NCBI GenBank assembly: GCA_023819525.1
Contig: JAMWCT010000001.1
Location: 1 to 37,835, forward strand
Source of the DNA: Candidatus Omnitrophota bacterium
GTDB taxonomy: Bacteria; Omnitrophota; Gorgyraeia; Duberdicusellales; 4484-171
Length of the DNA stretch: 37,835 nucleotides
Direction: 5' to 3'
Positions 25,367 to 37,835 of the stretch are shown here, in pieces. How positions within the stretch are numbered: the stretch's first letter is position 1; the number at the start of each line of letters is the position of its first letter. The position numbers and the translations under genes were made by a program. The notes below the pieces were generated by a model, which did no database searches, was not told the DNA's origin, and saw nothing but the letters and a program-made list of their open reading frames with translations.

Positions 25367-25396
25367 TTGACAATAAAATGCAAACTAAAGTATAAT
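25367..25396 (+). promoter_or_regulatory. Consensus sigma70 promoter TTGACA-N18-TATAAT heading the 13-gene accessory operon
   Basis: TTGACA at 25367-25372 and TATAAT at 25391-25396, both perfect hexamers. The first ATG (25406) starts 10 nt after the -10 and has no Shine-Dalgarno sequence. Confidence 0.55.
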
Positions 25397-25405
25397 GATT
25401 TCTGT

Positions 25406-26254
25406 ATGTATGAATTATACTGGAATTTAAAAGAGAAACCTTTCGAAAATACGCCTGATCCAAAATATATTTACTATTCTTCTTTGCATAAAGAAGCAAT
25501 CTCAAGACTTCTATATGCGGTGAGAGAAAGAAAAGGTGCTGCACTTTTAACAGGAGAGTATGGCAGTGGCAAGACCTTATTAAGTAGAATTCTTTTAGAA
25601 GAATTAGCCCAAGAACATATTTATCAGTATGTAGTTATTTTTAATCCAAGATTAGATGCGACAGATTTGTTGCGGACAATACTTATACAGTTATCAGAGC
25701 AAAACCAGTCAACTTCTAAAGCAGAAATACTTTCATCTTTATACAATATATTTTATTCTATTTATCGCTCAAATAGGCACACGGTAATAGTTATAGACGA
25801 AGCTCAAGCAATTATAAATGAGGAAGTTTTTGAAGAGTTAAGATTATTATTAAATTTTCAATTAAATAATGCATTTTTGCTTACTTTAGTTATTTTAGGC
25901 CAACCTGAATTAAAAGTAAAAATTGCAAAATTACCACAATTACTTCAGCGACTTTCTATACGCTATCATTTAAATGCCTTAAATGAAGTAGAGACAAAAG
26001 AGTACATTTTACATAGACTTTCAGTTGCAGGCGCAACAATACAGCCTTTCACCGAAGATGCCTTTAAAGATATCTATTTTTTTTCAGCCGGTATTCCAAG
26101 ACAAATTAATACTATATGCGATTTAGCATTACTTGTTGGTTATGGAGAGAATTTAAAGGAAATTACTAGAGATGTAATTTTAAAAGTGGCTGAAGATATA
26201 AAACCAACACCATCTTTATTAGAAAAACAGCAGGGTTTATATTTTGGAAAATAA
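25406..26254 (+). CDS. ExeA/GspA-like AAA ATPase (COG3267 type)
   Basis: MYELYWNLKEKPFENTPDPKYIYYSSLHKEAISRLLYAV matches the family N-terminus. Walker A GEYGSGKT, Walker B VIVIDEAQ, then LVILGQPEL and GIPRQINTICD. The start is set at ATG 25406. The track's TTG at 25367 is the -35 hexamer. Confidence 0.8.
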   Translation: MYELYWNLKEKPFENTPDPKYIYYSSLHKEAISRLLYAVRERKGAALLTGEYGSGKTLLSRILLEELAQEHIYQYVVIFNPRLDATDLLRTILIQLSEQNQSTSKAEILSSLYNIFYSIYRSNRHTVIVIDEAQAIINEEVFEELRLLLNFQLNNAFLLTLVILGQPELKVKIAKLPQLLQRLSIRYHLNALNEVETKEYILHRLSVAGATIQPFTEDAFKDIYFFSAGIPRQINTICDLALLVGYGENLKEITRDVILKVAEDIKPTPSLLEKQQGLYFGK

Positions 26255-26258
26255 ATAT

Positions 26259-27266
26259 ATGATTAAAATTTCCGATATTTTTGATAAACATAAAAAAAAT
26301 AAAATTGAAAACAAAGAAAAAGCAAAAGACTTAATTTCTAAAACAACCGATGCACCTGTCTCTTATTCTGAAGGCGATCAAGAAAGTGTTTCTTTGCAAG
26401 TAATTAATATAACTACCAACCTGATAGATTTAGCGCTTAAAATTTACAAACCGAATGCCCTTAATTTAGATTTAATAAATAAATTAAAAAACTGTATCAA
26501 TATGCTTGTAGAATTTAAAAATTTGGAAGATGATTTTTTAAAAGTATTTTTTAAAGACTATCCAGAAGACTCTACCTATTTAGTCTATCATATAGCAAAT
26601 ACTTCTATTTTAAGTTTAGAAGTCGCTAAAACTTTAAAGTATGATAACGAAAGGCTTTTTTATTTAGGTTTAGGAGCTTTTTTGCATAAAATAGGTTTAA
26701 CTACAATTTTAGACATAACCTTAGAAGATTCTCAATTAGAGCAAGCAAAAAGTGAAAAAATAAAGACACATCCTTTGGTGGGCAGTAAAATTTTAAAAGA
26801 ATTTGAAAAAGAATTTGATTCAACTACAATTAAAATTGTTGAGCAGAGTTTTGAAAGGATAGATAAAAGCGGTTATCCTTTAGGGATAGATGAACCAATA
26901 CCAGAAGCTCAAATAGTAAATATTGTCCAAGTATATGAGAGTTTGGTTCATAAAAGAAATTATCGGGAAAAATTTAATCCACTTAAAGCAATGAAAATAA
27001 TTATAGAAGATAAAGGTTTTGTGAATAATAAAATAAAAAAGGCATTAATTGAAAGGGTTGGTTTTTATCCACCAAATACACTCGTACTTCTTAATACAAA
27101 AGAAGAAGCAATTGTAATAGCAACAAATTTTAAAAATCCTTTAAGGCCGATAGTAAAAAAAATATCTACTCAAAATAAGATCCAAATTACAGAGCCAAAG
27201 ATTATTAATTTAGCCAAAGATACCCATTTTTATATTGAGAAAATTTTAACTCAAAATGGCCAATAA
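26259..27266 (+). CDS. Degenerate HD-GYP-like domain protein
   Basis: GAFLHKIG (HD replaced by HK), KTHPLVGSKIL, SFERIDKSGYPLGI (HHE replaced by SFE, GYP retained), IVNIVQVYESLVHKRNY (the DxxD position reads QxxE). The start is set at ATG 26259. The track start at 26244 is TTG. Confidence 0.6.
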   Translation: MIKISDIFDKHKKNKIENKEKAKDLISKTTDAPVSYSEGDQESVSLQVINITTNLIDLALKIYKPNALNLDLINKLKNCINMLVEFKNLEDDFLKVFFKDYPEDSTYLVYHIANTSILSLEVAKTLKYDNERLFYLGLGAFLHKIGLTTILDITLEDSQLEQAKSEKIKTHPLVGSKILKEFEKEFDSTTIKIVEQSFERIDKSGYPLGIDEPIPEAQIVNIVQVYESLVHKRNYREKFNPLKAMKIIIEDKGFVNNKIKKALIERVGFYPPNTLVLLNTKEEAIVIATNFKNPLRPIVKKISTQNKIQITEPKIINLAKDTHFYIEKILTQNGQ

Positions 27267-28962
27267 AAAGGTTTTTTTTGTTTCAATAAGTATTCTTTTT
27301 TTAGTTTTTGTTATCTCATATTATTTAACCACACTTATCTATAAAGAAAAATTTGATTCAGATTTTTTGCAATATTCTAAATATTTTGAAAAGACTACCA
27401 GAGAAAACGACGCGCTTAATTTAGCGAAAAAAATATTTGAAAGTGCACAATTTAAAATAAATGTTTTACAGGATAAAATATATCAATTAGAGAAAAAAAA
27501 TAAAAGTCTAATTCAAGAGATAAAAGATAAACAAAAAGAAATAGAAAAAATCAATCAAAATAAATCATTAGCGGAGAAAGAACTTAATCAGCTCTTAAAA
27601 GATAAAGTTTTAATAGATCAAGAGATTAAGAAACTAAAAGAAAAATTAACCAATTATGAAATAGATAATAGAAGATTGGCTGAAGAGAATTTAGTTCTAA
27701 AAGAGGAAATTGAAAAATTTCAAAATGAAAATTCAGCTTTAAATAAAACTGTAAATTTGCTAAAAGAAAATATAAATAATAAAGAGGCTGTAGAAAAAAA
27801 ACTTAAAGAAAGAGTTGTTTACTTAAACAATCTTTTGTTAGAAAAAGACAATTTAATAACTACAAAGAATGCTCAAATAAATAATCTTAATACAGTAAAA
27901 GTAAATTACGAAGAAAAAATAAATGAATTAATAGAAGAAAACTCTAATTTAAAAAAATCACTTTTGTCTTTACAGGAAGAATTATCTACAAAAAAATTAG
28001 AATTAACCGAATTATTAAAGCAAAAATATATGCAAAAACAGCAAAATTTAAAAATGCAGGAAACGATTAATTCTATATCAGCCACACTAAGCGAAAAAGA
28101 TCAAATGTTGCAAGCTACAGAAAGCGAAAATGAAGCTTTAAAAAGCACGGTTAAAAAACAAATTAAAGAATTTCAGGATTTGCAAAAACTTTATAATAAA
28201 GTTTCAACTGAGTATAATATATTAAATGATAAGTTAAAAAATTTAGAAGAAGAAAAAAACCAACTTCAAAGTCAATATTTAAACTATAAACTTGAAACAC
28301 AAAAACAACTAGAGGAAACTACCGCCAAATTGCTATCTACACAAAGAGAATTAAACAATTTAAAAAATGAATTAGAGAACCAAAAGCAACTTAATCTAAC
28401 AACAAATAATCAATTGTTACAGTTTACAGAAGAGATAAAAGAAAAAGAGGCAAGAATAGGAGAGCTTCAAAATCAAAAAACTTCCTTAGAAGAAGAAAAA
28501 TACACGCTTAATGATAAAATGAAAGACATACAAAACAAATATAATCAACTTTTGGTAAACCACAATAGTCTACAAGAAAAATTTTCTAATTTGCAAAAAA
28601 ATTTTGAAGAAATTAAAGTCGAAAAAGAAGCGCAGATAAATAAATTAATTGAGGAAGCCAAATTACTTAAGCAAGAAGTTTCTTTAAAAGAAAAAGCAGT
28701 TTCCAATTTAAAGGAACAATTTGAGCATTTAAACCAAAAATATATAGTAGTTTCCAAAGAAAATTTAGATTTAAACTCGCAAAATTATCAATTAAGGCAA
28801 CAGATAGATGAGTTAAATGTAAAAATAGATAATATTTTAAAAGATAAGGAGAAAACCATTAAAATAAAACAACAATTAAGTCCAAAAGTTACCAAAAAAA
28901 CTAAAGTAGAAGAGTTAAAAAATAAAGTTGAGGAAAAATTAAGAGAAATTATAGCTTTTTAG
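27256..28962 (+). CDS. Membrane-anchored long coiled-coil protein
   Basis: One N-terminal TM helix (VFFVSISILFLVFVISYYLTTLIY), then about 520 aa of E/K/L/N/Q-rich heptad-like sequence. No enzymatic motif is present. Confidence 0.6.
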   Translation: MANKKVFFVSISILFLVFVISYYLTTLIYKEKFDSDFLQYSKYFEKTTRENDALNLAKKIFESAQFKINVLQDKIYQLEKKNKSLIQEIKDKQKEIEKINQNKSLAEKELNQLLKDKVLIDQEIKKLKEKLTNYEIDNRRLAEENLVLKEEIEKFQNENSALNKTVNLLKENINNKEAVEKKLKERVVYLNNLLLEKDNLITTKNAQINNLNTVKVNYEEKINELIEENSNLKKSLLSLQEELSTKKLELTELLKQKYMQKQQNLKMQETINSISATLSEKDQMLQATESENEALKSTVKKQIKEFQDLQKLYNKVSTEYNILNDKLKNLEEEKNQLQSQYLNYKLETQKQLEETTAKLLSTQRELNNLKNELENQKQLNLTTNNQLLQFTEEIKEKEARIGELQNQKTSLEEEKYTLNDKMKDIQNKYNQLLVNHNSLQEKFSNLQKNFEEIKVEKEAQINKLIEEAKLLKQEVSLKEKAVSNLKEQFEHLNQKYIVVSKENLDLNSQNYQLRQQIDELNVKIDNILKDKEKTIKIKQQLSPKVTKKTKVEELKNKVEEKLREIIAF

Positions 28963-28965
28963 ATT

Positions 28966-29793
28966 ATGTTTTGGATAAATTTTTTGTTATTTTTTTTCTT
29001 TTTTCTACATCCTGCCTTCTCAGAAAACCTTATAGAAAAAATAAAAATAACATACAAAAAAGCAAATTATTATTATCAGCGTGGCGAATACCAAAAAGCT
29101 GAGAAAGAATATCTGGAAACTTTAAGGCTTATCGATGAATATAAGATTAACCTAAAAGATAAAAATCAGGCAAGCAGTAAAAAAGAAAAAACAACCTTAT
29201 ATACTATTGGCGAAGGCGATATTTTATATATTTCTGTCTGGCAAAATGAAGATTTAAATCAAGAGATAATTGTAAGACCAGATGGATATGCATCTTTTCC
29301 TTTAATTGGAGATTTAAAGATATCTGGTTTAACAATACCTCAATTAGACAAACTACTTACCGAAAAATTGAAAGAATATATACGTAGACCAGAAGTTTCA
29401 ATAACTTTGAGAAAAATTGGAGGAAGCAGGGTTGTTTTATTAGGTGAAGTTACTTGGCCAGGGGTATACCATGTTGATGGAACAAAGACGGTTTTAGAAT
29501 TAATCGGAATGGCCGGGGATTTTACTCTTGACGCGGTAAAATCAAGTGTGATTTTAATAAGAGGTGGATTTTTAAATCCAGAAGTTAGACGACTAAATAT
29601 AGCAAATGTATTAAAAGGAGACCTAACTGATAATGTTGTGCTTCAATCAGAAGATATAGTCTTTGTTCCAAAAACCTTTATTTCAAACCTAAACTATGTT
29701 ATAAATCAGATCCTTGAGCCGCTTTCAGGTGGTAGTATGGTTTATTCAAAATGGCATTCCTTTGACCGTCTGCCAAGAGAAAAAAAGCCTTGA
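28966..29793 (+). CDS. Polysaccharide-export (Wza-like Poly_export + SLBB) periplasmic/outer-membrane protein
   Basis: Signal peptide MFWINFLLFFFFFLHPAFS. YTIGEGDILYISVWQNEDLNQEIIVRPDGYASFPLIGDLKISGLTIPQLDKLL (Poly_export), then VVLLGEVTWPGVYHVDGTKTVLELIGMAGDFT (SLBB). There is no lipobox Cys. Confidence 0.78.
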   Translation: MFWINFLLFFFFFLHPAFSENLIEKIKITYKKANYYYQRGEYQKAEKEYLETLRLIDEYKINLKDKNQASSKKEKTTLYTIGEGDILYISVWQNEDLNQEIIVRPDGYASFPLIGDLKISGLTIPQLDKLLTEKLKEYIRRPEVSITLRKIGGSRVVLLGEVTWPGVYHVDGTKTVLELIGMAGDFTLDAVKSSVILIRGGFLNPEVRRLNIANVLKGDLTDNVVLQSEDIVFVPKTFISNLNYVINQILEPLSGGSMVYSKWHSFDRLPREKKP

Positions 29794-29800
29794 AAATAAA

Positions 29801-31636
29801 ATGTTTAAGGTTCTTCTATGTATCCCGCCAGATTACGAATATAGTTACCCACCTCTTGGGACAGCTTCGCTTTGCGGTTTTTTGAAAGCAAAAAAAATAG
29901 ATACCCTACAAATGGATTTAAACATACTTTATAGAAAATTTCTTTTAAATAAAATTGAAGCAGATTTTTTAGATACCCATCAAAAAAAGAAAATTTTAAA
30001 GCAAATTCTCTTTAATTTCTTTCATAAAAAATTAAAAGATAGATATTATTCTGATTTTTTACCAAGAAATACTGATAGAATTTTTCCATTTTTACCTTAT
30101 GAAAACAATTCAAATAGTTCCTTTTATTTTACCGAAAGACTACTTTCTTCTGAATATCTTTTTTATTATCTTTCTGATATCAAAGAAAATACTTTTTATC
30201 AATTTTACCAACAAGAAAAAATTTTAGATTTTTTGGATAAAGAAAAAATTAATTTATGTGGAATATCTGTTATCTCCCCTTCACAGGTAATTGCATCTTT
30301 AACCTTAGGTTTTTTAATTAAAAAGAACTTACCGCATATACATATAACTTTTGGTGGACAATGGGTGACTTTATATAGGAAGGCTTTACTTAAAAGAAAA
30401 AAATTTTTTTCCTGTTTTGATAGTTTAGTTGTCTTTGAAGGAGAAACCCCTCTTTATAGACTTTGCTGTATGTTAAAGCAAAAAAGAAAGTATTATATTA
30501 AAAATTTAATATTTAAAGAGACAAAAGAAGATTTTACCTATAACCATACTGAAGAAGACCTAAATAAATTGCCAACTCCAGATTTTGATGGCCTGCCTTT
30601 GAAAGAATACGACGCAAATGACTTTAAAACTATAACATTAACTTATGAAACCTCAAGAGGTTGTTATTGGGCAAGATGTGCATATTGCGTAGATTTACCT
30701 TTACCTAAACCAACTTATAGAAAAAAAGCAGCATATTTAGTTTCAAATGATATAAAAAAATTAAAGAAAAAGTATAAAGCAACAAATCTTCTTTTTAGCG
30801 ATCCAGCGCTTTCGCCGCGTCAAATGCTTGAGGTTTCAAAAGAACTACTAAAAAACCGAATAAAGATAAAATGGTGGTGTATGGCTAGACCAGATAGTGG
30901 TTTTAAGTATGAAATTTTTAAAGCTGCTTTTAGGGCAGGACTTACACATATAAATTTTGGCTTTGAAACAGCAAATGATAGATTGTATAATCTTCTTTCT
31001 AAAGGAACAAAATTAGAAATAGTTAAAAAAGTAATTAGAGATTGCAAAAAAGCAGGTATTTTAGTAGACCTGCAAACAATGTTAGGACTTCCAAAAGAAG
31101 GCTTTCAAGAAGGTTTAAATACAATAGAGTTTTTGGTAAAAAATAAAAAATACATCTTTAATGTTAGTTTCAATCTTTATTATCTTACCCCTCAAAATCA
31201 TATATTTTGTCAACCAGAAAAATATCAAATAGAATATAAGCAAAAATACCCATTTAGTTTTTTTATACCTTTTAGAAATAGAGAAGGCCTGACAAGAAAA
31301 GAAGCTTATCTACTTTGGTTACTTTATGAAAAACTTATCAATAAAGAAAAAACTTACAATTTAGGTCCTTTAGAATCTATTAAAATACCTAATTATATAG
31401 AAGAAAAAATAATTCGTTTTAAGTTGCTTGAAGAATCAATTAAATTGTATTGTCTTTTTGATACAAAATCTAAAAAATTTATAGTTATGGATAGAATAAG
31501 GAAGAATATGTTGAAGCTACTGGAGAATAAAAATTTTCACCATTTAGCAAAAGAGCAAATTGATTTTTTAAATTATCTTCTAAAAGAAAAATTTTTAAAA
31601 AAAACTCCAAAATATGGCCGAGAAACTGCTCTTTAA
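29801..31636 (+). CDS. B12-binding-domain radical SAM protein
   Basis: N-terminal KVLLCIPPDYEYSYPPLGTASLCGFL and ISVISPSQV (B12-binding Rossmann pattern). Radical SAM cluster region TSRGCYWARCAYC, followed by NFGFETANDR. The start is set at ATG 29801, 7 nt after the upstream stop. Confidence 0.75.
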   Translation: MFKVLLCIPPDYEYSYPPLGTASLCGFLKAKKIDTLQMDLNILYRKFLLNKIEADFLDTHQKKKILKQILFNFFHKKLKDRYYSDFLPRNTDRIFPFLPYENNSNSSFYFTERLLSSEYLFYYLSDIKENTFYQFYQQEKILDFLDKEKINLCGISVISPSQVIASLTLGFLIKKNLPHIHITFGGQWVTLYRKALLKRKKFFSCFDSLVVFEGETPLYRLCCMLKQKRKYYIKNLIFKETKEDFTYNHTEEDLNKLPTPDFDGLPLKEYDANDFKTITLTYETSRGCYWARCAYCVDLPLPKPTYRKKAAYLVSNDIKKLKKKYKATNLLFSDPALSPRQMLEVSKELLKNRIKIKWWCMARPDSGFKYEIFKAAFRAGLTHINFGFETANDRLYNLLSKGTKLEIVKKVIRDCKKAGILVDLQTMLGLPKEGFQEGLNTIEFLVKNKKYIFNVSFNLYYLTPQNHIFCQPEKYQIEYKQKYPFSFFIPFRNREGLTRKEAYLLWLLYEKLINKEKTYNLGPLESIKIPNYIEEKIIRFKLLEESIKLYCLFDTKSKKFIVMDRIRKNMLKLLENKNFHHLAKEQIDFLNYLLKEKFLKKTPKYGRETAL

Positions 31637-31988
31637 ACTTACAGGCTCAAGCATGTATCCATTAATAAGGGAGGGAAGTTATATTTTAGTTAAGCCAACA
31701 AAAAAAATTTTTTTTGGTGAACTTGTTGTTTTCAAAGAGGGCGATAAGATTATCTGTCACCGTTTAATTTTTAAAAAAAATCATTTTTTTTATTCTAAGT
31801 CTGATACTGAACTTTTTAGAATAGAAAAATTAAATATAGAAAATATTTTAGGAAAAGTGGTAATGGTTATAGATTTTAAAAAACGTATATTTTTAAATAA
31901 TTTTTTTTGGTATCTCAAAAGTTTATTATTTTTTTTCTTTACCCCAATTTTAGTAATATTTCTTAATTTTTTTAAAAAAAATGAATAG
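31614..31988 (+). CDS. S26B (Sec11/SipW, Ser-His type) signal-peptidase-like protein with a C-terminal TM helix
   Basis: GSSMYPLI (box B Ser13), GELVVF (box C), ICHRLI (box D with His49, not Lys), SKSDTE (weak box E). Hydrophobic tail FFWYLKSLLFFFFTPILVIFLNFF. There is no N-terminal TM or signal sequence. Confidence 0.6.
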   Translation: MAEKLLFKLTGSSMYPLIREGSYILVKPTKKIFFGELVVFKEGDKIICHRLIFKKNHFFYSKSDTELFRIEKLNIENILGKVVMVIDFKKRIFLNNFFWYLKSLLFFFFTPILVIFLNFFKKNE

Positions 31989-33411
31989 CATTTATATAGT
32001 TGAAGAGCACCATCAAGTTTTAAGAATATGGAGAAAGAAAAAAATTAAAAATTTAGATGTTTTGCACATAGATGCACATCTTGACTGGCAAGTTTTTCTG
32101 GCAAAACCTATAGAACAGATTTTAAGAGATTCAAAAACAATAAAACAACTAAAAGAAGAATTAGAAAACACACTTCTATACTTTCAATACCAAAAGAATT
32201 TAGGAGAACAAACAAATATAGGAAATTACCTATATCCAGCACAAAAAGAAAATATAATAAAAAATATCTGGTGGGTGGTTCCTTCAAAAAATTTATATAA
32301 AGATATAAGCTTAATAAAAAAATTTTTCTTTTATTTAAAAAAAGATTCTCGATTAGCAGAAAAACCAATTTTTAAATTAAAAAATAAAATTTTGAAAGTA
32401 AATTTTGCAGAGCAGGTTTTTTACATTTGCACACTTTATGACCTACCTAAATTTAAAGATGAGGTTATATTAGATATAGATATAGATTTTTTTGTAATTA
32501 ATAATTTAAAAAAAACAGACAATGTAACTGATATCGCAAAAAGAAAACTTTGGATACAGCCAAAAGAAGTAGCAACCCTCTTAAAAGAAAAAGTAAAAAA
32601 CTCTAAAATCATTACTATTTCTTATTCTACTAACGATGGTTTTACTCCAATAGAGTTTAGGTATATAGCTAGTGAACTGGCATTTTATTTTTCACCTCAA
32701 AAATTCAAAAATAGATTTTTAAAAAGTTTTAAAGCGCATATAAATTTTTTCGCATTTAAAGAAACAAAAAAAAGTTTTTACTATTGGCAAGCAGTCAAAT
32801 TAGATAAAGCTTATAGATTTAAAGATAATAACTTTGGTTTTCTTTATTTGAAAATAAAAAAATTTAATTTAGCTAAAAAAGAATTTGAAAATATTTTATC
32901 TGTAGACAAAACTAACCCAGCGGCTCTTTTAGGTTTAGGATTTATATATTTTCATAAGAAAAAATTAAAAGAAGCCAAAAAAAATCTTTATAAAGCTTAT
33001 TATTTTTCAAAAATTCAAAGATTTTTTTCTATCTACAGAAAAGCAATATTTCTTTTGGCTAAATTAGAATTTAGGTTAAAAAATTTTAGAGTATCTAAAA
33101 AATTTTTTTTAAAATTTATCAAAAGCGAATCAACTGAACCAGAGGCTTATTTTTATCTTGCAAGACTGCTCATTTTAGAAAAAAAATTTCTAAAAGCAAC
33201 CATTTACTTAAAAGATGCTGTAAAGTTAGGCTTGGAGGTTGATGGTTTATTTTATTTAGCAAAAATTTTAACCTTCCTAAAGAAAAACAAATATGATATA
33301 ATAAATTTTATAAATCAAAGAATAATCTTTATAAAAAACAAAAAATTAAAAAAGATAAAATATGTAAGAGAAATTTTAAAAAAATTTAAATATGCAGGAG
33401 ATAATCTATAA
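31981..33411 (+). CDS. Arginase/deacetylase-fold (UPF0489-like) domain fused to TPR repeats
   Basis: The N-terminus has IVEEHHQVL, LHIDAHLDW (D31-x-H33-x-D35) and ILDIDIDFF (D165/D167/D169), which mimic the ureohydrolase metal-ligand motifs. The C-terminal half has TPR-like repeats (AALLGLGFIYFHKKKLKEAKKNLYKAY, EAYFYLARLLILEKKFLKATIYLKDAV). Confidence 0.55.
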   Translation: MNSIYIVEEHHQVLRIWRKKKIKNLDVLHIDAHLDWQVFLAKPIEQILRDSKTIKQLKEELENTLLYFQYQKNLGEQTNIGNYLYPAQKENIIKNIWWVVPSKNLYKDISLIKKFFFYLKKDSRLAEKPIFKLKNKILKVNFAEQVFYICTLYDLPKFKDEVILDIDIDFFVINNLKKTDNVTDIAKRKLWIQPKEVATLLKEKVKNSKIITISYSTNDGFTPIEFRYIASELAFYFSPQKFKNRFLKSFKAHINFFAFKETKKSFYYWQAVKLDKAYRFKDNNFGFLYLKIKKFNLAKKEFENILSVDKTNPAALLGLGFIYFHKKKLKEAKKNLYKAYYFSKIQRFFSIYRKAIFLLAKLEFRLKNFRVSKKFFLKFIKSESTEPEAYFYLARLLILEKKFLKATIYLKDAVKLGLEVDGLFYLAKILTFLKKNKYDIINFINQRIIFIKNKKLKKIKYVREILKKFKYAGDNL

Positions 33412-33685
33412 AAAAAATCCTAATTTTGTAGCAAGAGAGATTGTCAATGAATTAGTCTTGGTTCCTATATATAAGGATACAAAAGAACTAAACTGTATTT
33501 ATACTTTAAATAAACCTGCTAAAGTTTTTTGGCAACTTTTAGATGGAAAAAGAACGATTTCGCAAATAAAAAAAGAACTCTTAAAAAAATTTTCTTCTAT
33601 AGATTTAGATAATAATTTTGAAAAGTTAATAAAAGAACTTCTAGAAATAAAAGCAATAAAAAAATCATATGAAACCAAAATTTAA
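33392..33685 (+). CDS. PqqD-family peptide chaperone (RiPP recognition element)
   Basis: 97 aa. FVAREIVNELVLVP...IYTLNKPAKVFWQLLDGKRTISQIKKELLKKF...LIKELLEIKAIK fits the PqqD beta-strand plus three-helix pattern. Confidence 0.8.
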   Translation: MQEIIYKKNPNFVAREIVNELVLVPIYKDTKELNCIYTLNKPAKVFWQLLDGKRTISQIKKELLKKFSSIDLDNNFEKLIKELLEIKAIKKSYETKI

Positions 33686-33866
33686 TCCAAAAATTACCAA
33701 AATCAAATTAAATCCAGAACAAGCAGTTTTAATCTGCAGTTGTTATCGCTCAGGAAGAGTTATAGCTACTAGTGGTACTCGTTCAAGCACTCGGGTTTGT
33801 GGAAGAGGAACTGTAAGAGGATATCCTAGATATGCAACCACAACAACCAGCAGAAGCTGGAGTTAA
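33669..33866 (+). CDS. Candidate RiPP precursor peptide (65 aa)
   Basis: MKPKFNPKITKIKLNPEQAVLICSCYRSGRVIATSGTRSSTRVCGRGTVRGYPRYATTTTSRSWS. The leader is Lys-rich. The core has 8 Arg, 3 Cys and many Ser/Thr/Gly, and ends in Ser. Its start overlaps the PqqD stop by 17 nt, and an rSAM/SPASM gene begins 7 nt after its stop. Core DNA is about 44% GC versus about 24% for the leader (hand count). Confidence 0.65.
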   Translation: MKPKFNPKITKIKLNPEQAVLICSCYRSGRVIATSGTRSSTRVCGRGTVRGYPRYATTTTSRSWS

Positions 33867-33873
33867 TTTTTAA

Positions 33874-34917
33874 ATGCCAGATGAGTTTTATAATTTTTTT
33901 AAAAAATTAGACAATAATCTTTTTATAAACCAAGCCCACCTTGAGATTACATATCGTTGTAACCTAGATTGCGTTTATTGTTATTGTTTAAAAAATTCTA
34001 ATGAAATTAGTACTAATCAATTTAAAAAAATAATTGCTCAGTTAAAGGATTTAAATATTTTTTTCCTTACATTTAGTGGTGGAGAACCTTTTTTAAGAGA
34101 GGATTTTTTAGAACTATATTTATATGCAAAGCAAAAAGGTTTTTTGATAAGTGTATTAACTAATGGAACGCTTTTTAATAAAAAAAATATAGGTGTTTTA
34201 GCAAAAGCACCTCCATATGTAATTGAGATAACTTTAAATGCAATAAGCCAAAAGATTTATCAAAAAATCACACAGACTAATTTTAAAGTAAAAAAAGTTT
34301 TAGAAAATATCAAATTTTTAAAGGAAAAAAATATACCAGTTAAAGTTAAAACTACTGTTTTGAATTTAAATAAAGATGAGTTAATAAAGATTAAAAACTA
34401 TGTGTTTTCTGTTTTAGGAAAACCAAAGAAAGGCTATCTATTTGGTTACGATTTTTATATTTATCCTAAAATTGATGGAGAGAAAACACCAATAAAATAT
34501 AGATTAAATTTTACTCAAATAGAGAATATTTTAAAAAAAGATAGGGATTTATGGCGAGATTGGAAAAAAGAACTGAAAAGAAATTTGCCAAAAATTAATT
34601 TAAAAAATAAATTTTTCTGCACTTTCCCACTACAAAATTTTGTTATCTCGCCTACAGGAAAATTAAAATTTTGTATATTTTCTACTAAATTCAGTCAAGA
34701 TATAAAAGAAAAACCTATTAATTTAACTCACAGAGAACTTCTAAAAAATTTAGAAAATTATTTTCACGAATATAAAAATTCTTGTTATTTTAATTGCAAA
34801 TTTAATAAAACCTGTTTTTGGTGTCCTATAAGGCAAGAACTTGAAGGTAAAAGCAATTTAGATTATTTTTGCGCTTGGGCAAAATATTTTTATAAAGAAA
34901 CAAAAAGATGCAGATAA
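33874..34917 (+). CDS. Radical SAM/SPASM peptide maturase, paralog 1
   Basis: CNLDCVYC (CX3CX2C), FSGGEPFLR, C-terminal CTFPLQNFVISPTGKLKFC (CX12GX4C), CYFNCKFNKTCFWC and a final YFC. Confidence 0.82.
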   Translation: MPDEFYNFFKKLDNNLFINQAHLEITYRCNLDCVYCYCLKNSNEISTNQFKKIIAQLKDLNIFFLTFSGGEPFLREDFLELYLYAKQKGFLISVLTNGTLFNKKNIGVLAKAPPYVIEITLNAISQKIYQKITQTNFKVKKVLENIKFLKEKNIPVKVKTTVLNLNKDELIKIKNYVFSVLGKPKKGYLFGYDFYIYPKIDGEKTPIKYRLNFTQIENILKKDRDLWRDWKKELKRNLPKINLKNKFFCTFPLQNFVISPTGKLKFCIFSTKFSQDIKEKPINLTHRELLKNLENYFHEYKNSCYFNCKFNKTCFWCPIRQELEGKSNLDYFCAWAKYFYKETKRCR

Positions 34918-35969
34918 AAGCTCAAAGTGATTTTTTTTATAAATTGCATAAAGAGGCAATAAAAAGAAGAATTCCTTTGAGAGTTATGTTTGAGATCACA
35001 TATAGATGTAATTTTAGCTGTCAATATTGCTATTTGCCAAAAAGCTATCGAAACATTAAAGAATTAAATAAAAAAGAGGTTTTTTCTATATTAAAAGATT
35101 TAGCAAAAGAAGGGTGTTTTTATTTAGGTTTTAGTGGGGGTGAACCTTTTTTAAGAAATGATTTTTTAGAGATATTAGAATTTTCTAAAAGGTTAGGATT
35201 TTTTATAACTATAAATACAAATGCTTCTTTAATTAACAAAAAAGTTGCAAAAAAAATCATTGATTTGGGCATAAATAAGATTGATATAAATATTATTAGT
35301 CTAAAAGAAGCTATTTTTAGAAAAGTTACAAAAAGTTTACGTTTTAATAAAGTTTTAGATGCTATTTATTTTTTAAAAAGTAAAATTCCTTTGGGATTTA
35401 AAACTTGTATAACAAAATATAATTTTAACCAAATAGAAAATATAAAAAAATTTGCTAAAAGTATGGGGGTTTTTTTAAGATTAGACGATAGACTAAGCCT
35501 TTGTTTAAATGGAGATAACCGTCCTTATAGATTTAGTATATATAAGATTGAAGACCTAGATTTAGATTTATATTTAGAGAAAAAAGTTTCAGTTAAAAAA
35601 TTTAAGGCTATAGATATATTTAGTTGTAAAGCAGGATTTTTACAATGCGCCATTAATCCGGCTGGTAAAATTAAAATATGTGTTGGCATAGATGCCCCTT
35701 TATATAGTTGTAAAAAAAATTTTAAAAGAGCCTGGCAAAGATTGGAAGATTTTTTAAATTTAATTAAAATAGATGATAGATTTAAATGTTTTAGATGTAA
35801 ATTAAAAAATTTTTGTGACTGGTGTCCCGCAAAGTCTTTTCTTGAAAATAAGGACTTTATAAGTTGCGATAAGGAAAGTAGGTTTTTTGCATATCAAGCT
35901 TACAAAAAATATTATGAGCAAACAAATATATTTAAAAATAGCAGATACAGTAGTTTTGTTGGAAAGTAA
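34908..35969 (+). CDS. Radical SAM/SPASM peptide maturase, paralog 2
   Basis: CNFSCQYC, FSGGEPFLR, CKAGFLQCAINPAGKIKIC, CFRCKLKNFCDWC and a final SC. Confidence 0.82.
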   Translation: MQIKAQSDFFYKLHKEAIKRRIPLRVMFEITYRCNFSCQYCYLPKSYRNIKELNKKEVFSILKDLAKEGCFYLGFSGGEPFLRNDFLEILEFSKRLGFFITINTNASLINKKVAKKIIDLGINKIDINIISLKEAIFRKVTKSLRFNKVLDAIYFLKSKIPLGFKTCITKYNFNQIENIKKFAKSMGVFLRLDDRLSLCLNGDNRPYRFSIYKIEDLDLDLYLEKKVSVKKFKAIDIFSCKAGFLQCAINPAGKIKICVGIDAPLYSCKKNFKRAWQRLEDFLNLIKIDDRFKCFRCKLKNFCDWCPAKSFLENKDFISCDKESRFFAYQAYKKYYEQTNIFKNSRYSSFVGK

Positions 35970-36822
35970 ATTTGAATATGCAAAGAACGACAAAGGCATA
36001 GCACCAGAGCGTTTCAGTAATTTTTTTTATAAAAAAGCAATACCGGATATAAAGATAGAGATACAAATAGTAGAAAAGTTCCCCCAAGACTTTTACAGGC
36101 CGGATGGTTTTTCAACAATTCACCCACAGGATAAGTCTTTATGTTGGCAATGGGAAGAAAAAAAAGATTATTTTATTTTTAGAAGTTTAGTAGAAGGTAA
36201 ATTTCAATTAGCACAAATTGAAAAAAATTTCAAAAATGTGAGATTTTTTGTCCTGCCACAAAAAAATAAATTTATATGGTTTGCCACAGATGTAATTTAT
36301 GATTTTTTACAAATACTTTTTTTAGTTTATTTTGCAAAAACAAAAAAAGGGATATTTTTACATGCAAGTGGTATAAATTTATATGGCAGTGGTTTTGTCT
36401 TTGCAGGAAAATCAGGCGTAGGAAAAACTACTTTAGCCAAACTTTGGAATAAATATTCTGATGCAGAAATTTTAAACGATGATAGGATAATTGTGCGAAA
36501 ACAAAATAAGCAATTTTTTATATATGGTTGCCCTTGGCATGGAGCTTTTAGCGATTATTTAAAATCAAGGATGCATCCAGCGCCTTTAAAAAAAGTATTT
36601 TTTATCTATCCGGCTAAAAAAAATATTCTAAAAAAGTTAAATTTTTTTGATGCATTTAAACTTCTATATCCGGCTATTTTTCCTGTCTTTTGGGATAGGC
36701 TTTCGTTAAATAATATATTTTTATTTTTAAACGATTTGTTAGAAAATATAGTTTGTTTCTCTTTAGGATTTAGAAAGACAAAGGATATAATTAAATTTTT
36801 TAAAGAAAAGTGTTTAAATTAG
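35914..36822 (+). CDS. HPr-kinase-like P-loop kinase
   Basis: IFLHASGINLYGSGFVFAGKSGVGKTTLAKLW...ILNDDRIIV matches the HprK C-terminal catalytic core (lHg..v...G.GvLi.G.SG.GKS..A..L......l..DD). The start is set at ATG 35914 (MSKQIYLKIAD). The track start at 35887 is possible. Confidence 0.72.
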   Translation: MSKQIYLKIADTVVLLESKFEYAKNDKGIAPERFSNFFYKKAIPDIKIEIQIVEKFPQDFYRPDGFSTIHPQDKSLCWQWEEKKDYFIFRSLVEGKFQLAQIEKNFKNVRFFVLPQKNKFIWFATDVIYDFLQILFLVYFAKTKKGIFLHASGINLYGSGFVFAGKSGVGKTTLAKLWNKYSDAEILNDDRIIVRKQNKQFFIYGCPWHGAFSDYLKSRMHPAPLKKVFFIYPAKKNILKKLNFFDAFKLLYPAIFPVFWDRLSLNNIFLFLNDLLENIVCFSLGFRKTKDIIKFFKEKCLN

Positions 36823-37835
36823 CTTATAAAAATTTTAGTCTTGCAACTCATATAAAAAGCATAAGTCTAAAAAAAATAATTTTTGCTCAATTTGATTTAA
36901 CTTATAAGTGTGATTATTCTTGTAATTACTGTTATACAATTTGTTTCAACAAAGAAAAATATTTGAAAAAAGAATTAGATACCAACAAAATAAAAGCTAT
37001 TTTAGATAAACTTTATAATGAAGGTATCCTATGGCTTACTTTTAGTGGAGGAGATCCATTAACAAGAAGTGATTTTTTAGAAATTTATAAGTATTCAAAG
37101 GAAAAAGGTTTTCTTATAAGTATCCTTACAAATGGTTATAGGATAGACTTAAAACTAATCGATTTTTTCAAAAAGTATAGACCCTTTTTGATTGAGATTA
37201 CTTTAAATTCTATAAATCCCAAAACTTTTAAAAAAATTATCCAAAAAAATTTAAATTCAGAAAAGGTGCTTTCTGTAATAAAAAAATTAAAAAAAGAAGG
37301 GCTACCACTAAAAATAAAGACCCAAGTTATAAAGAATAATTTAGATGAAATTCCAAAAATAAAAAAATTTCTTCAAAAACTAAATTTAAAATTTTACCCA
37401 TCTTCTATAATATATCCAAGACTAAATAAAAATAAATTTCCTTGCTCGTTAAGGATAGATAAAGAGAAGTTTTTCAAAAAAAATTTGGGTTGTAATCAAA
37501 ATTTTAAGAAACATTTTAAATTTTTTCCCTGCACAGTTTTGAATACAGAGGGAATTCAGATTGATCCTTATGGAAATGTTTTTCTATGCGAACTTATAAG
37601 AAAACCTAAAGTAAATATTTTAAGATGTGACTTAAAAACTCTATACAATAAACTTATAGATTTTTTAAAAGATTTAGAAAACAGGTATAAAGATAAATGC
37701 CTTTGTGCAAGATGTAGATATATATATAGTTGTATGTGGTGTCCAGGGAAGGCATATTTAGAGACAAATAGTTTTATAAAACCAATAGATTATTACTGCC
37801 TACAAAAAGAAATTTTAAATTATGGAAAAAGTATC
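36810..37835 (+). CDS. Radical SAM/SPASM peptide maturase, paralog 3 (GTG start; 3' end cut by the window edge; absent from the supplied ORF track)
   Basis: Hand translation gives (V/M)FKLAYKNFSLATHIKSISLKKIIFAQFDLTYKCDYSCNYCY...LTFSGGDPLTRSDFLEIYKYSKEKGFLISILTNG...CTVLNTEGIQIDPYGNVFLC...CLCARCRYIYSCMWC...YYC. The frame is open from the stop at 36801-36803 to nt 37835 (342 codons). The only plausible start is GTG at 36810. It is most similar to paralog 1. Confidence 0.8.
   Translation, partial: MFKLAYKNFSLATHIKSISLKKIIFAQFDLTYKCDYSCNYCYTICFNKEKYLKKELDTNKIKAILDKLYNEGILWLTFSGGDPLTRSDFLEIYKYSKEKGFLISILTNGYRIDLKLIDFFKKYRPFLIEITLNSINPKTFKKIIQKNLNSEKVLSVIKKLKKEGLPLKIKTQVIKNNLDEIPKIKKFLQKLNLKFYPSSIIYPRLNKNKFPCSLRIDKEKFFKKNLGCNQNFKKHFKFFPCTVLNTEGIQIDPYGNVFLCELIRKPKVNILRCDLKTLYNKLIDFLKDLENRYKDKCLCARCRYIYSCMWCPGKAYLETNSFIKPIDYYCLQKEILNYGKSI

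Follow-up and report, generated by a model that had tools for sequence, protein, structure and literature searches.

A predicted peptide arginase with tetratricopeptide repeats in a RiPP-like radical SAM cassette of a Candidatus Omnitrophota bacterium

The peptide arginases OspR, FlmR, OhkR, KspR/PhaR, and PbsE belong to the protein family PF12640 (PMC12703449, PMC10028609, PMC8784127), and three motifs are typical of the arginases in it that act on peptides: EEH(N/H)EAF, DXHXD, and LDIDLDYFSC (PMC12703449). The Mn ligands of OspR are His12, Asp39, His41, Asp43, Asp165, and Asp167, while Glu11 touches the guanidine group, and mutants in the DXHXD motif lose both Mn and activity (PMC10028609). 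OspR dimerizes via a domain inserted after the third motif, from Ser170 to Ser234. PbsE has been described as a "TPR-containing putative arginase" (TPR, tetratricopeptide repeat), and its conversion of Arg to L-ornithine (L-Orn) with Mn has been shown in vivo as well as in vitro; His10, Asp31, His33, Asp35, Asp165, and Asp167 are predicted as its ligands (PMC12257519). Annotation lists BipC as a UPF0489-superfamily protein with tetratricopeptide repeats, and its regioselective arginase activity is proven (PMC12707348). Both PbsE and Ps_BipC modify one Arg, and only when the substrate is bis-hydroxylated (PMC12257519, PMC12707348). Here a protein of similar architecture, arginase-TPR, is described. 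It is encoded at 31981..33411 in a stretch of 37,835 nucleotides from a Candidatus Omnitrophota bacterium (contig JAMWCT010000001.1 of GenBank assembly GCA_023819525.1). The whole stretch is called the window, and all features given for it are on its forward (+) strand. Sequence and model comparisons indicate that arginase-TPR probably acts as a peptide arginase in a cassette resembling those for peptides that are made on ribosomes and modified after translation (RiPPs). An earlier reading of the bare sequence, here called the original prediction, had proposed an arginase-fold enzyme fused to TPRs, acting as a peptide arginase or in a deiminase-like manner.

The gene is a long open reading frame (ORF) in DNA of ~24% GC, with an ATG at 31981 and a stop at 33411, encoding 476 amino acids (aa). 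A Candidatus Omnitrophica metagenome-assembled genome (MAG; locus L003) contains an orthologue that is 79% identical, in the same gene order. The N-terminal part, aa 1 to about 237 (31981..32691), is the PF12640 (UPF0489/peptide-arginase) domain, recognized by Pfam, by a profile search of the Protein Data Bank (PDB) sequences, by hhalign, and by Foldseek. It is followed by an all-helical TPR solenoid, aa about 238-476 (32692..33408), recognized by Pfam TPR families, by the helices of the structure model, and by Foldseek. The first motif, E8-E9-H10-H11, is encoded at 32002..32013; H10 corresponds to OspR His12, which is a ligand of MnA, and E9 to OspR Glu11, the guanidine contact. The second, D31-A-H33-L-D35 (DXHXD; 32071..32085), corresponds to OspR Asp39, His41, and Asp43. 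In the third, D165-I-D167-I-D169 (within LDIDIDFF; 32473..32487), D167 and D169 correspond to OspR Asp165 and Asp167. The original prediction had placed all of these residues exactly where the translation has them, and the ORF is real. It had also set the whole third motif against the ureohydrolase ligand pattern. This is correct for D167 and D169, which align to OspR ligands, but D165 only precedes them: in OspR, Asp165 and Asp167 lie inside D163-I-D165-I-D167, so the ligands here are D167 and D169, with D165 as a conserved preceding residue.

All three PF12640 motifs are present in the protein, as VEEHHQVL (aa 7-14), DAHLD (aa 31-35), and LDIDIDFF (aa 164-171), while the motif tails deviate from the consensus, with QVL for EAF and FFV for YFSC. 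The Pfam match to PF12640, a family called FlmR_OhkR_N in a newer release, covers aa 4-123 and scores 29.3 bits against a gathering cut-off of 27. When a profile of six N-terminal domains was compared with the PDB sequences, the one meaningful match was OspR (8BRP; E 9.5e-7), aligned across all three motifs. Comparison of a 37-sequence alignment with OspR residues 6-178 by hhalign gave a probability of 98.7% and an E-value of 2e-16. A phmmer search of the PDB sequences with the full protein returned TPR proteins alone; OspR was reached only with the N-domain profile. Only unnamed metagenomic proteins came from a protein search whose N-domain profile was built on 16 sequences, the OspR fragment among them.

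The profile and hhalign alignments place the six OspR ligands on H10, D31, H33, D35, D167, and D169, and Glu11 on E9. The six ligand positions are invariant in the 37-sequence alignment and in the 16-sequence alignment with OspR, and they are at least 90% conserved in alignments of 147 and 93 sequences, whose representatives are 20-40% identical. In the 37-, 93-, and 16-sequence alignments H10 is invariant and E8 nearly so, and the same three alignments show invariant Asp and His positions in D31-A-H33-L-D35, which are at least 90% conserved in the 147-sequence alignment. D165, D167, and D169 are each invariant or at least 90% conserved in the four alignments. The position of OspR Glu11 is occupied by Glu in the window protein and by Asp in most homologues. 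On this profile evidence, arginase-TPR almost certainly belongs to the PF12640 peptide-arginase family. The original prediction had noted a likeness to UPF0489 and another to the OspR family. Both are borne out by the matches, but they are one resemblance and not two, since the literature puts the OspR-type peptide arginases in PF12640 (PMC12703449, PMC10028609).

The full-length protein was modeled with AlphaFold2 (pLDDT 90, pTM 0.84). Because Foldseek searches with this model were swamped by TPR structures, a second model was made of aa 1-250 (pLDDT 88). Its top Foldseek matches are E. coli agmatinase, proclavaminate amidinohydrolase, guanidinopropionase, and arginases, with probabilities of up to 1.0. 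The fold search is consistent with a ureohydrolase without deciding the matter, and the weight is borne by the sequence-profile evidence. The peptide-arginase reading of the original prediction is supported by the in silico tests it had named, as the profiles reach OspR, ureohydrolases top the fold search, and the ligands are conserved. Its description of the enzyme as deiminase-like is not sustained, since neither Pfam nor NCBIfam gave a match to a deiminase family at E<=0.1 and the ligand pattern is that of a binuclear, six-ligand ureohydrolase. A conventional arginase or agmatinase (PF00491) was likewise considered and rejected; Pfam gave no match to this family at E<=0.1, and the motifs GGDHS and SxDxDxxDP are replaced by EEHH and LDIDIDFF.

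The C-terminal half matches the Pfam families TPR_17, TPR_2, TPR_19, TPR_8, and TPR_16 over about aa 270-435. Helices H239-H473 make up this part of the full-length model, and its Foldseek matches are CTPR, PilF, OGT-TPR, and MamA. An exhaustive search with a hidden Markov model (HMM) gave 955 cluster representatives (clusters at 50% identity) at E<=1e-3, of which 202 also pass E<=1e-30; among the best 150 of the 955, most have a length of 400-550 aa. Within the arginase-TPR clade the fusion to TPRs is the rule: they are found in 88 of the 93 long family representatives, and 72 of the 93 match PF12640. The OspR-type inserted dimerization domain is missing. From F171 to W191 there are only about 21 aa, and in 37 clade members 31-46 aa (median 45) separate the third motif from S..GxTP, compared with about 95 aa in OspR. 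The TPR solenoid may fill the role that the inserted dimerization domain has in OspR.

A more distant TPR-arginase-like clade, with proteins of about 400-415 aa that are 25% identical, is encoded directly after a GNAT acetyltransferase gene (L050 1978-3809; L051 7003-9233; L052 5342-7608). In L051 and L052 the GNAT gene is closely preceded by two small ORFs, of 53 and 69-81 aa, with genes for prepilin-type N_methyl proteins nearby. None of these three loci has the radical S-adenosylmethionine (SAM) cassette described below, and the arginase-then-GNAT order recalls the acylation logic of selidamides. The distant homologues P0040, P0042, and P0043, of ~400 aa, also have no radical SAM cassette in their gene context, and they were not used as evidence.

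A precursor peptide of 65 aa is encoded at 33669..33866, close downstream of the arginase-TPR gene. It consists of the leader MKPKFNPKITKIKLNPEQAVL (nucleotides (nt) 33669-33731) and a 44-aa core, ICSC...SWS (nt 33732-33863). The translated core contains eight Arg residues, as the original prediction had counted, together with three Cys and no Lys. In the window's large ORFs Arg makes up 3.6% and Lys 11.6%, and the binomial probability is 1.6e-4 for at least eight Arg in the core and 4e-3 for zero Lys. No Pfam or NCBIfam model matches the window precursor. Its leader follows the consensus K(F)KPxITR[VI]KLNPEQAVLxCxC, which is common to about 70 related small ORFs (L001-L131); the distinct family members with this leader number more than 70. 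The cores of this family are hypervariable; they are rich in Ser, Gly, Thr, Ala, Cys, and Arg, and usually end in Ser/Thr (...SS, ...AS). Three or four paralogous precursors are found in each of L017, L019, L064, and L124.

Arg is found in 37 of the 38 distinct cores that adjoin an arginase gene, and 30 of the 38 have two or more. Together these cores contain 7.1% Arg and 2.0% Lys, compared with 6.3 and 9.0% for the proteins of the cassettes. When metagenomes were scanned independently for the leader motif, 79 loci were obtained, some of them complete cassettes without an arginase. When an arginase is present the cores have 7.7% Arg and 2.0% Lys (64 distinct cores), and when it is absent these values are 4.5 and 4.3% (10 cores, from six cassettes with good coverage). 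The difference between cores with and without arginase gives p=0.006 in a one-sided Mann-Whitney test, on samples that are small and phylogenetically non-independent. The effect is moderate, and the direction of the Arg/Lys bias fits an arginine-consuming enzyme. Complete cassettes without arginase, with PqqD, precursor, radical SAM enzymes, ScmC, and ABC exporter, are those of L064, L065, L078, L079/L081, L108, L115, and L120.

A pattern scan of reference genomes found 40 loci, the majority from Omnitrophota and the others from Verrucomicrobiota, Planctomycetes, Aminicenantes, Elusimicrobia, Saganbacteria, Nitrospirae, Gottesmanbacteria, and one Woesearchaeota MAG. The ORFs of the loci were annotated with HMMs made from the proteins of the window itself. 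The recurring cassette encodes an S24 peptidase, arginase-TPR, PqqD, the precursor, one to three SPASM-type radical SAM enzymes, a ScmC-like protein, a further radical SAM enzyme, an ABC exporter, and an NTP_transf_5 protein; a B12-binding radical SAM enzyme (B12-rSAM) is often encoded as well. The cassette is kept in about 45 loci found via the arginase and in 10 more found via the precursor, and overall it was seen in about 60 loci, most of them from Omnitrophota. A literature search on the cassette, covering SCM-like genes, PqqD with radical SAM enzymes, and Omnitrophota RiPPs, found nothing relevant, and both the precursor family and the cassette appear to be uncharacterized.

Several of the separate proteins of the window are joined in one polypeptide in Elusimicrobia and other MAGs, and the following fusions were confirmed with Pfam. 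B12-rSAM is fused to UPF0489 without TPRs in L001 (1126-3261; 711 aa), and to UPF0489 plus TPRs in L043 (8414-11383) and L045 (8468-11338), in proteins of about 960-990 aa. L041 (8714-11458; 914 aa) combines B12-rSAM, UPF0489, TPRs, and PqqD, with PqqD on the C-terminal side of the TPRs, while L024 (8124-10391) has B12-rSAM and TPRs without an arginase domain. In L041 the domains run arginase, TPR, PqqD, as do the genes in the window, and this match is the best evidence that the TPRs link the catalytic domain to the leader-binding RiPP recognition element (RRE) and to the B12-rSAM. The idea of the original prediction that the TPR half could dock the leader or another enzyme gains support from these lineages, where B12-rSAM, arginase, TPR, and PqqD are one protein. 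Apparent fusions of the S24 peptidase and NTP_transf_5 were also seen in several loci, flagged by the window-protein HMMs alone.

The operon of the window is tightly packed on one strand. It begins with the B12-binding radical SAM enzyme (29801..31636), which matches PF02310 and PF04055 and, weakly, RiPP C-methyltransferase families. The mechanically called ORF begins with a TTG at 29714, which gives an 80-nt overlap with the Poly_export gene; judged by the N-terminus of its homologue P0006 (MSQVLLIIPPNY...), the true start is probably the ATG at 29801 (MFKVLLCIPPDY...). Next is an S24/S26-type peptidase of 124 aa (31614..31988; PF00717, E 4.3e-10), a candidate leader peptidase, whose gene is found directly upstream of the arginase gene in most loci and here overlaps it by 8 nt. 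Downstream, the arginase-TPR gene overlaps by 20 nt the gene for a 97-aa PqqD-type RRE (33392..33685; PF05402, E 5.4e-7), which in turn overlaps the precursor gene by 17 nt. Behind the precursor come two radical SAM/SPASM-type maturases. Maturase A (33874..34917) matches PF04055 and is similar to AlbA over nearly the full length and to NirJ2 over the full length, and maturase B (34908..35969) has Pfam and NCBIfam matches. They are followed by a ScmC-like/HprK-related P-loop protein (35887..36822) with weak matches to Hpr_kinase_C, TIGR04355, and TIGR04249, the L003 orthologue of which has PF27840 ScmC, and by a third radical SAM/SPASM-type maturase (36810..37835), which is cut by the window end.

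Upstream of the operon (25367-29793) the window has genes for a TIGR03015-like ATPase (237.8 bits against a cut-off of 324.5), an HD_5 protein, a coiled-coil protein of 568 aa, and a Poly_export protein. Behind the cassette of the syntenic MAG (L003, 13853-17422) come genes for an ABC exporter, an NTP_transf_5 protein, and the chain-length determinant Wzz. Flanks of the XrtA/PEP-CTERM type are found again in at least eight other loci (L012, L013, L025, L029, L047, L055, L057, and L060). The RiPP-like cassette sits within an exopolysaccharide gene set of the XrtA/PEP-CTERM type. Elsewhere the window holds ordinary chromosomal genes, for DnaE, GuaA/GuaB, Tgt, TrmD, FolD, and a class-I Glu/Gln-type aminoacyl-tRNA synthetase.

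For the substrate chemistry, the role of the TPR half, and the order of the steps we infer the following. Arginase-TPR probably converts Arg to Orn on the adjacent precursor. Its N-terminal ~240 aa would form a binuclear-Mn ureohydrolase with H10, D31, H33, D35, D167, and D169 as ligands and with E9 holding the guanidinium group. In the co-transcribed 65-aa precursor, the Arg side chains of the core would be hydrolyzed to ornithine and urea, which would change the mass by -42.02 Da per site at up to 8 sites, and the chemistry would be the metal-activated hydroxide mechanism proposed for OspR (PMC10028609). The TPR half most likely tethers the catalytic domain to the PqqD protein, which would hold the KLNPEQAVL leader, and to the B12-rSAM partner, so that the enzymes would work on one bound precursor. 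Presumably the SPASM-type radical SAM enzymes cross-link the Cys-rich core, and the S24 peptidase and the ABC exporter would then finish and export the product.

With the same family and chemistry, arginase-TPR might instead be narrow and late-acting, limited to a single Arg or a few particular ones that it would attack only once the radical SAM enzymes had modified neighboring residues. This is possible, if on the whole unlikely. PbsE and Ps_BipC, with their single Arg in a bis-hydroxylated substrate, are precedents for it, and so is KgrD, which needs thiomorpholine (PMC12703449). The operon also contains three SPASM-type radical SAM enzymes and a B12-rSAM, and the fusion to B12-rSAM implies that the steps are tightly coupled. 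OspR, FlmR, and OhkR, however, convert several Arg residues in unmodified precursors (PMC12703449), and the extreme Arg load and the lack of Lys in the core are easier to explain if many sites are used. Another view is that the protein is an active ureohydrolase for a non-peptide substrate, such as a guanidino-bearing small molecule or sugar of the flanking exopolysaccharide locus. The position of the cassette between the genes for the XrtA/PEP-CTERM-like ATPase, Poly_export, and Wzz would suit this, as would the glycosyltransferase, DegT, and PIG-L genes flanking other loci and the locus L032, which has an arginase but an Arg-free core. It is nevertheless improbable, as the arginase gene is translationally coupled to those of PqqD and the precursor and is found in single-protein fusions with the PqqD RRE and the RiPP-type B12-rSAM. 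The characterized PF12640 members are moreover all peptide-acting, OspR rejects free arginine (PMC10028609), and the arginase follows the cassette also in loci without detectable exopolysaccharide-export neighbors.

The shared α/β fold raises the question of a deacetylase-type (HDAC/acetylpolyamine amidohydrolase-like) or other hydrolase, which the original prediction had kept as an alternative, since arginases and HDAC-like deacetylases have this fold in common. Such an activity is very improbable. Acetylpolyamine aminohydrolase (ApaH) structures do appear in the Foldseek results, but weakly and far lower in the ranking (probability 0.15-0.38), while ureohydrolases come out on top. Pfam gives no match to a deacetylase family, and the six His and Asp residues in DXHXD and DxDxD form a binuclear-Mn signature, unlike the single-Zn Asp-His-Asp site of HDAC. 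The single sequence relative in the PDB is furthermore OspR, a proven arginase. It might finally be thought that the arginase-like domain and the TPRs are an inert scaffold that merely organizes a PqqD/radical SAM complex, since TPR is a scaffold module, L024 has a B12-rSAM+TPR fusion without the arginase domain, and some cassettes lack the arginase. This is scarcely credible, because about 150 diverged representatives (20-40% identity) show little or no variation in the ligands or at the OspR Glu11 position (Asp in most homologues and Glu in the window protein), which is not expected of a dead enzyme.

Some observations weigh against the proposed conversion of Arg to Orn on the precursor. The correlation with Arg is moderate and comes from small samples that are not phylogenetically independent, and every arginase-less cassette has Arg in its core. 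L032 (2406-2618) is an arginase-TPR locus where the sole detected precursor is Arg-free (SCCEQPSKPWVCASPW...); there may be another precursor off the contig, or the enzyme may have a different substrate there. Conversion of all eight Arg residues is not implied, because PbsE and Ps_BipC touch one Arg and only after prior modification. The margin of the Pfam match to PF12640 is small, and the match is confined to the N-terminal segment given above. The Foldseek scores for the ureohydrolases are weak (E 1e-3 to 1e-1, TM 0.38-0.42), and 8BRP (OspR) is absent from the top 50 of the aa 1-250 model. The suggested role of the TPRs is drawn from gene fusions alone, and the presumed orthology with PbsE and BipC from published descriptions of these two.

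The original prediction had supposed that peptide arginases are not TPR fusions. This is contradicted by PbsE (PMC12257519) and BipC (PMC12707348), and since these two papers from 2025 prove that there are TPR-containing peptide arginases, the fusion is already known and is not a novelty. What is new is the context of the enzyme: a large TPR-arginase clade without the OspR dimerization domain, a seemingly uncharacterized precursor family and SCM-like radical SAM cassette in uncultivated phyla, natural multi-enzyme fusions, and the placement inside XrtA/PEP-CTERM-like polysaccharide loci. Few peptide arginases have been characterized, and they are wanted as tools for installing ornithine ribosomally. 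The gene order and the fusions to PqqD and B12-rSAM give a testable model of substrate recognition, a point that the published structural papers call unresolved. If the proposed conversion is true, the window precursor would yield an unusually ornithine-dense product. The finding extends known enzymology and is not a new principle. A wider interpretation is offered as tentative and somewhat doubtful: the cassette may define a RiPP class that is new and widespread among uncultivated phyla (Omnitrophota, Elusimicrobia, Aminicenantes, Planctomycetota, and others), in which a physical B12-rSAM/arginase/TPR/PqqD complex would act on the leader-bound precursor (KLNPEQAVLxCxC). The product would be a Cys-cross-linked peptide with many ornithines, up to 8 in 44 residues, made and exported for an XrtA/PEP-CTERM-type exopolysaccharide or cell-surface program and not as a classical antibiotic.

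As to the cassette as a whole, the SynChlorMet (SCM) cassette ScmC/ScmD/ScmE/ScmF (TIGR04248-04251) is alike in having a PqqD-like protein, two SPASM radical SAM enzymes, and an HprK-related ScmC-like protein, and orthologues of the window ScmC-like protein match Pfam PF27840 ScmC. To our knowledge the SCM cassette has not been described with an arginase, an S24 peptidase, a B12-rSAM, or the KLNPEQAVL precursor family. Membership in it was rejected, as all the NCBIfam equivalog scores lie far below the cut-offs (ScmC 21.4 vs 125, ScmD 23.2 vs 100, ScmE 71.9 vs 400), and the likeness is architectural only.

Of the described arginases, OspR (landornamide; 8BRP), FlmR, and OhkR share PF12640 with the window protein and work on several Arg residues of RiPP cores. 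OspR and the window protein have the six ligands, Glu11, and the NxxYPA and S..GxTP motifs in common. OspR is, however, a single-domain protein of about 309 aa that is dimeric by its inserted domain and has no TPRs, while the window protein has TPRs and no insert. The precursors of OspR-type enzymes are of the NHLP, Nif11, or DD(I/V)LF type, and the partners are LanM and an epimerase. KgrD, the enteropeptin arginase, resembles the proposed system in converting peptide Arg to Orn in a radical SAM RiPP pathway after a prior radical SAM modification, but it belongs to PF00491, to which the window protein gives no match, and it has no TPRs.

Close in architecture are PbsE and BipC (Ps_BipC, Sg_BipC), which like the window protein combine PF12640 and TPRs in one polypeptide with the motifs EEHxE, DxHxD, and DIDLD. 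The numbers and the spacing of the predicted PbsE ligands are the same as those of H10, D31, H33, D35, D165, and D167 here, and BipC is about 400 aa long, as estimated from its 88-kDa fusion to maltose-binding protein. A B12-dependent radical SAM partner is encoded in the PbsE/BipC clusters as well as in the window. The PbsE/BipC pathways have an MNIO with a partner protein and FHAFRF/FRF-motif precursors, they occur in Bacillota and Actinomycetota, and a single Arg is converted. Neither an MNIO nor an FRF-motif precursor is found in the window, and MNIO families are not among the precomputed Pfam annotations of those related loci that carry such annotations. The window cassette differs from these pathways in having three SPASM-type radical SAM enzymes, a ScmC-like protein, PqqD, an S24 peptidase, another leader, and up to 8 Arg residues in the core.

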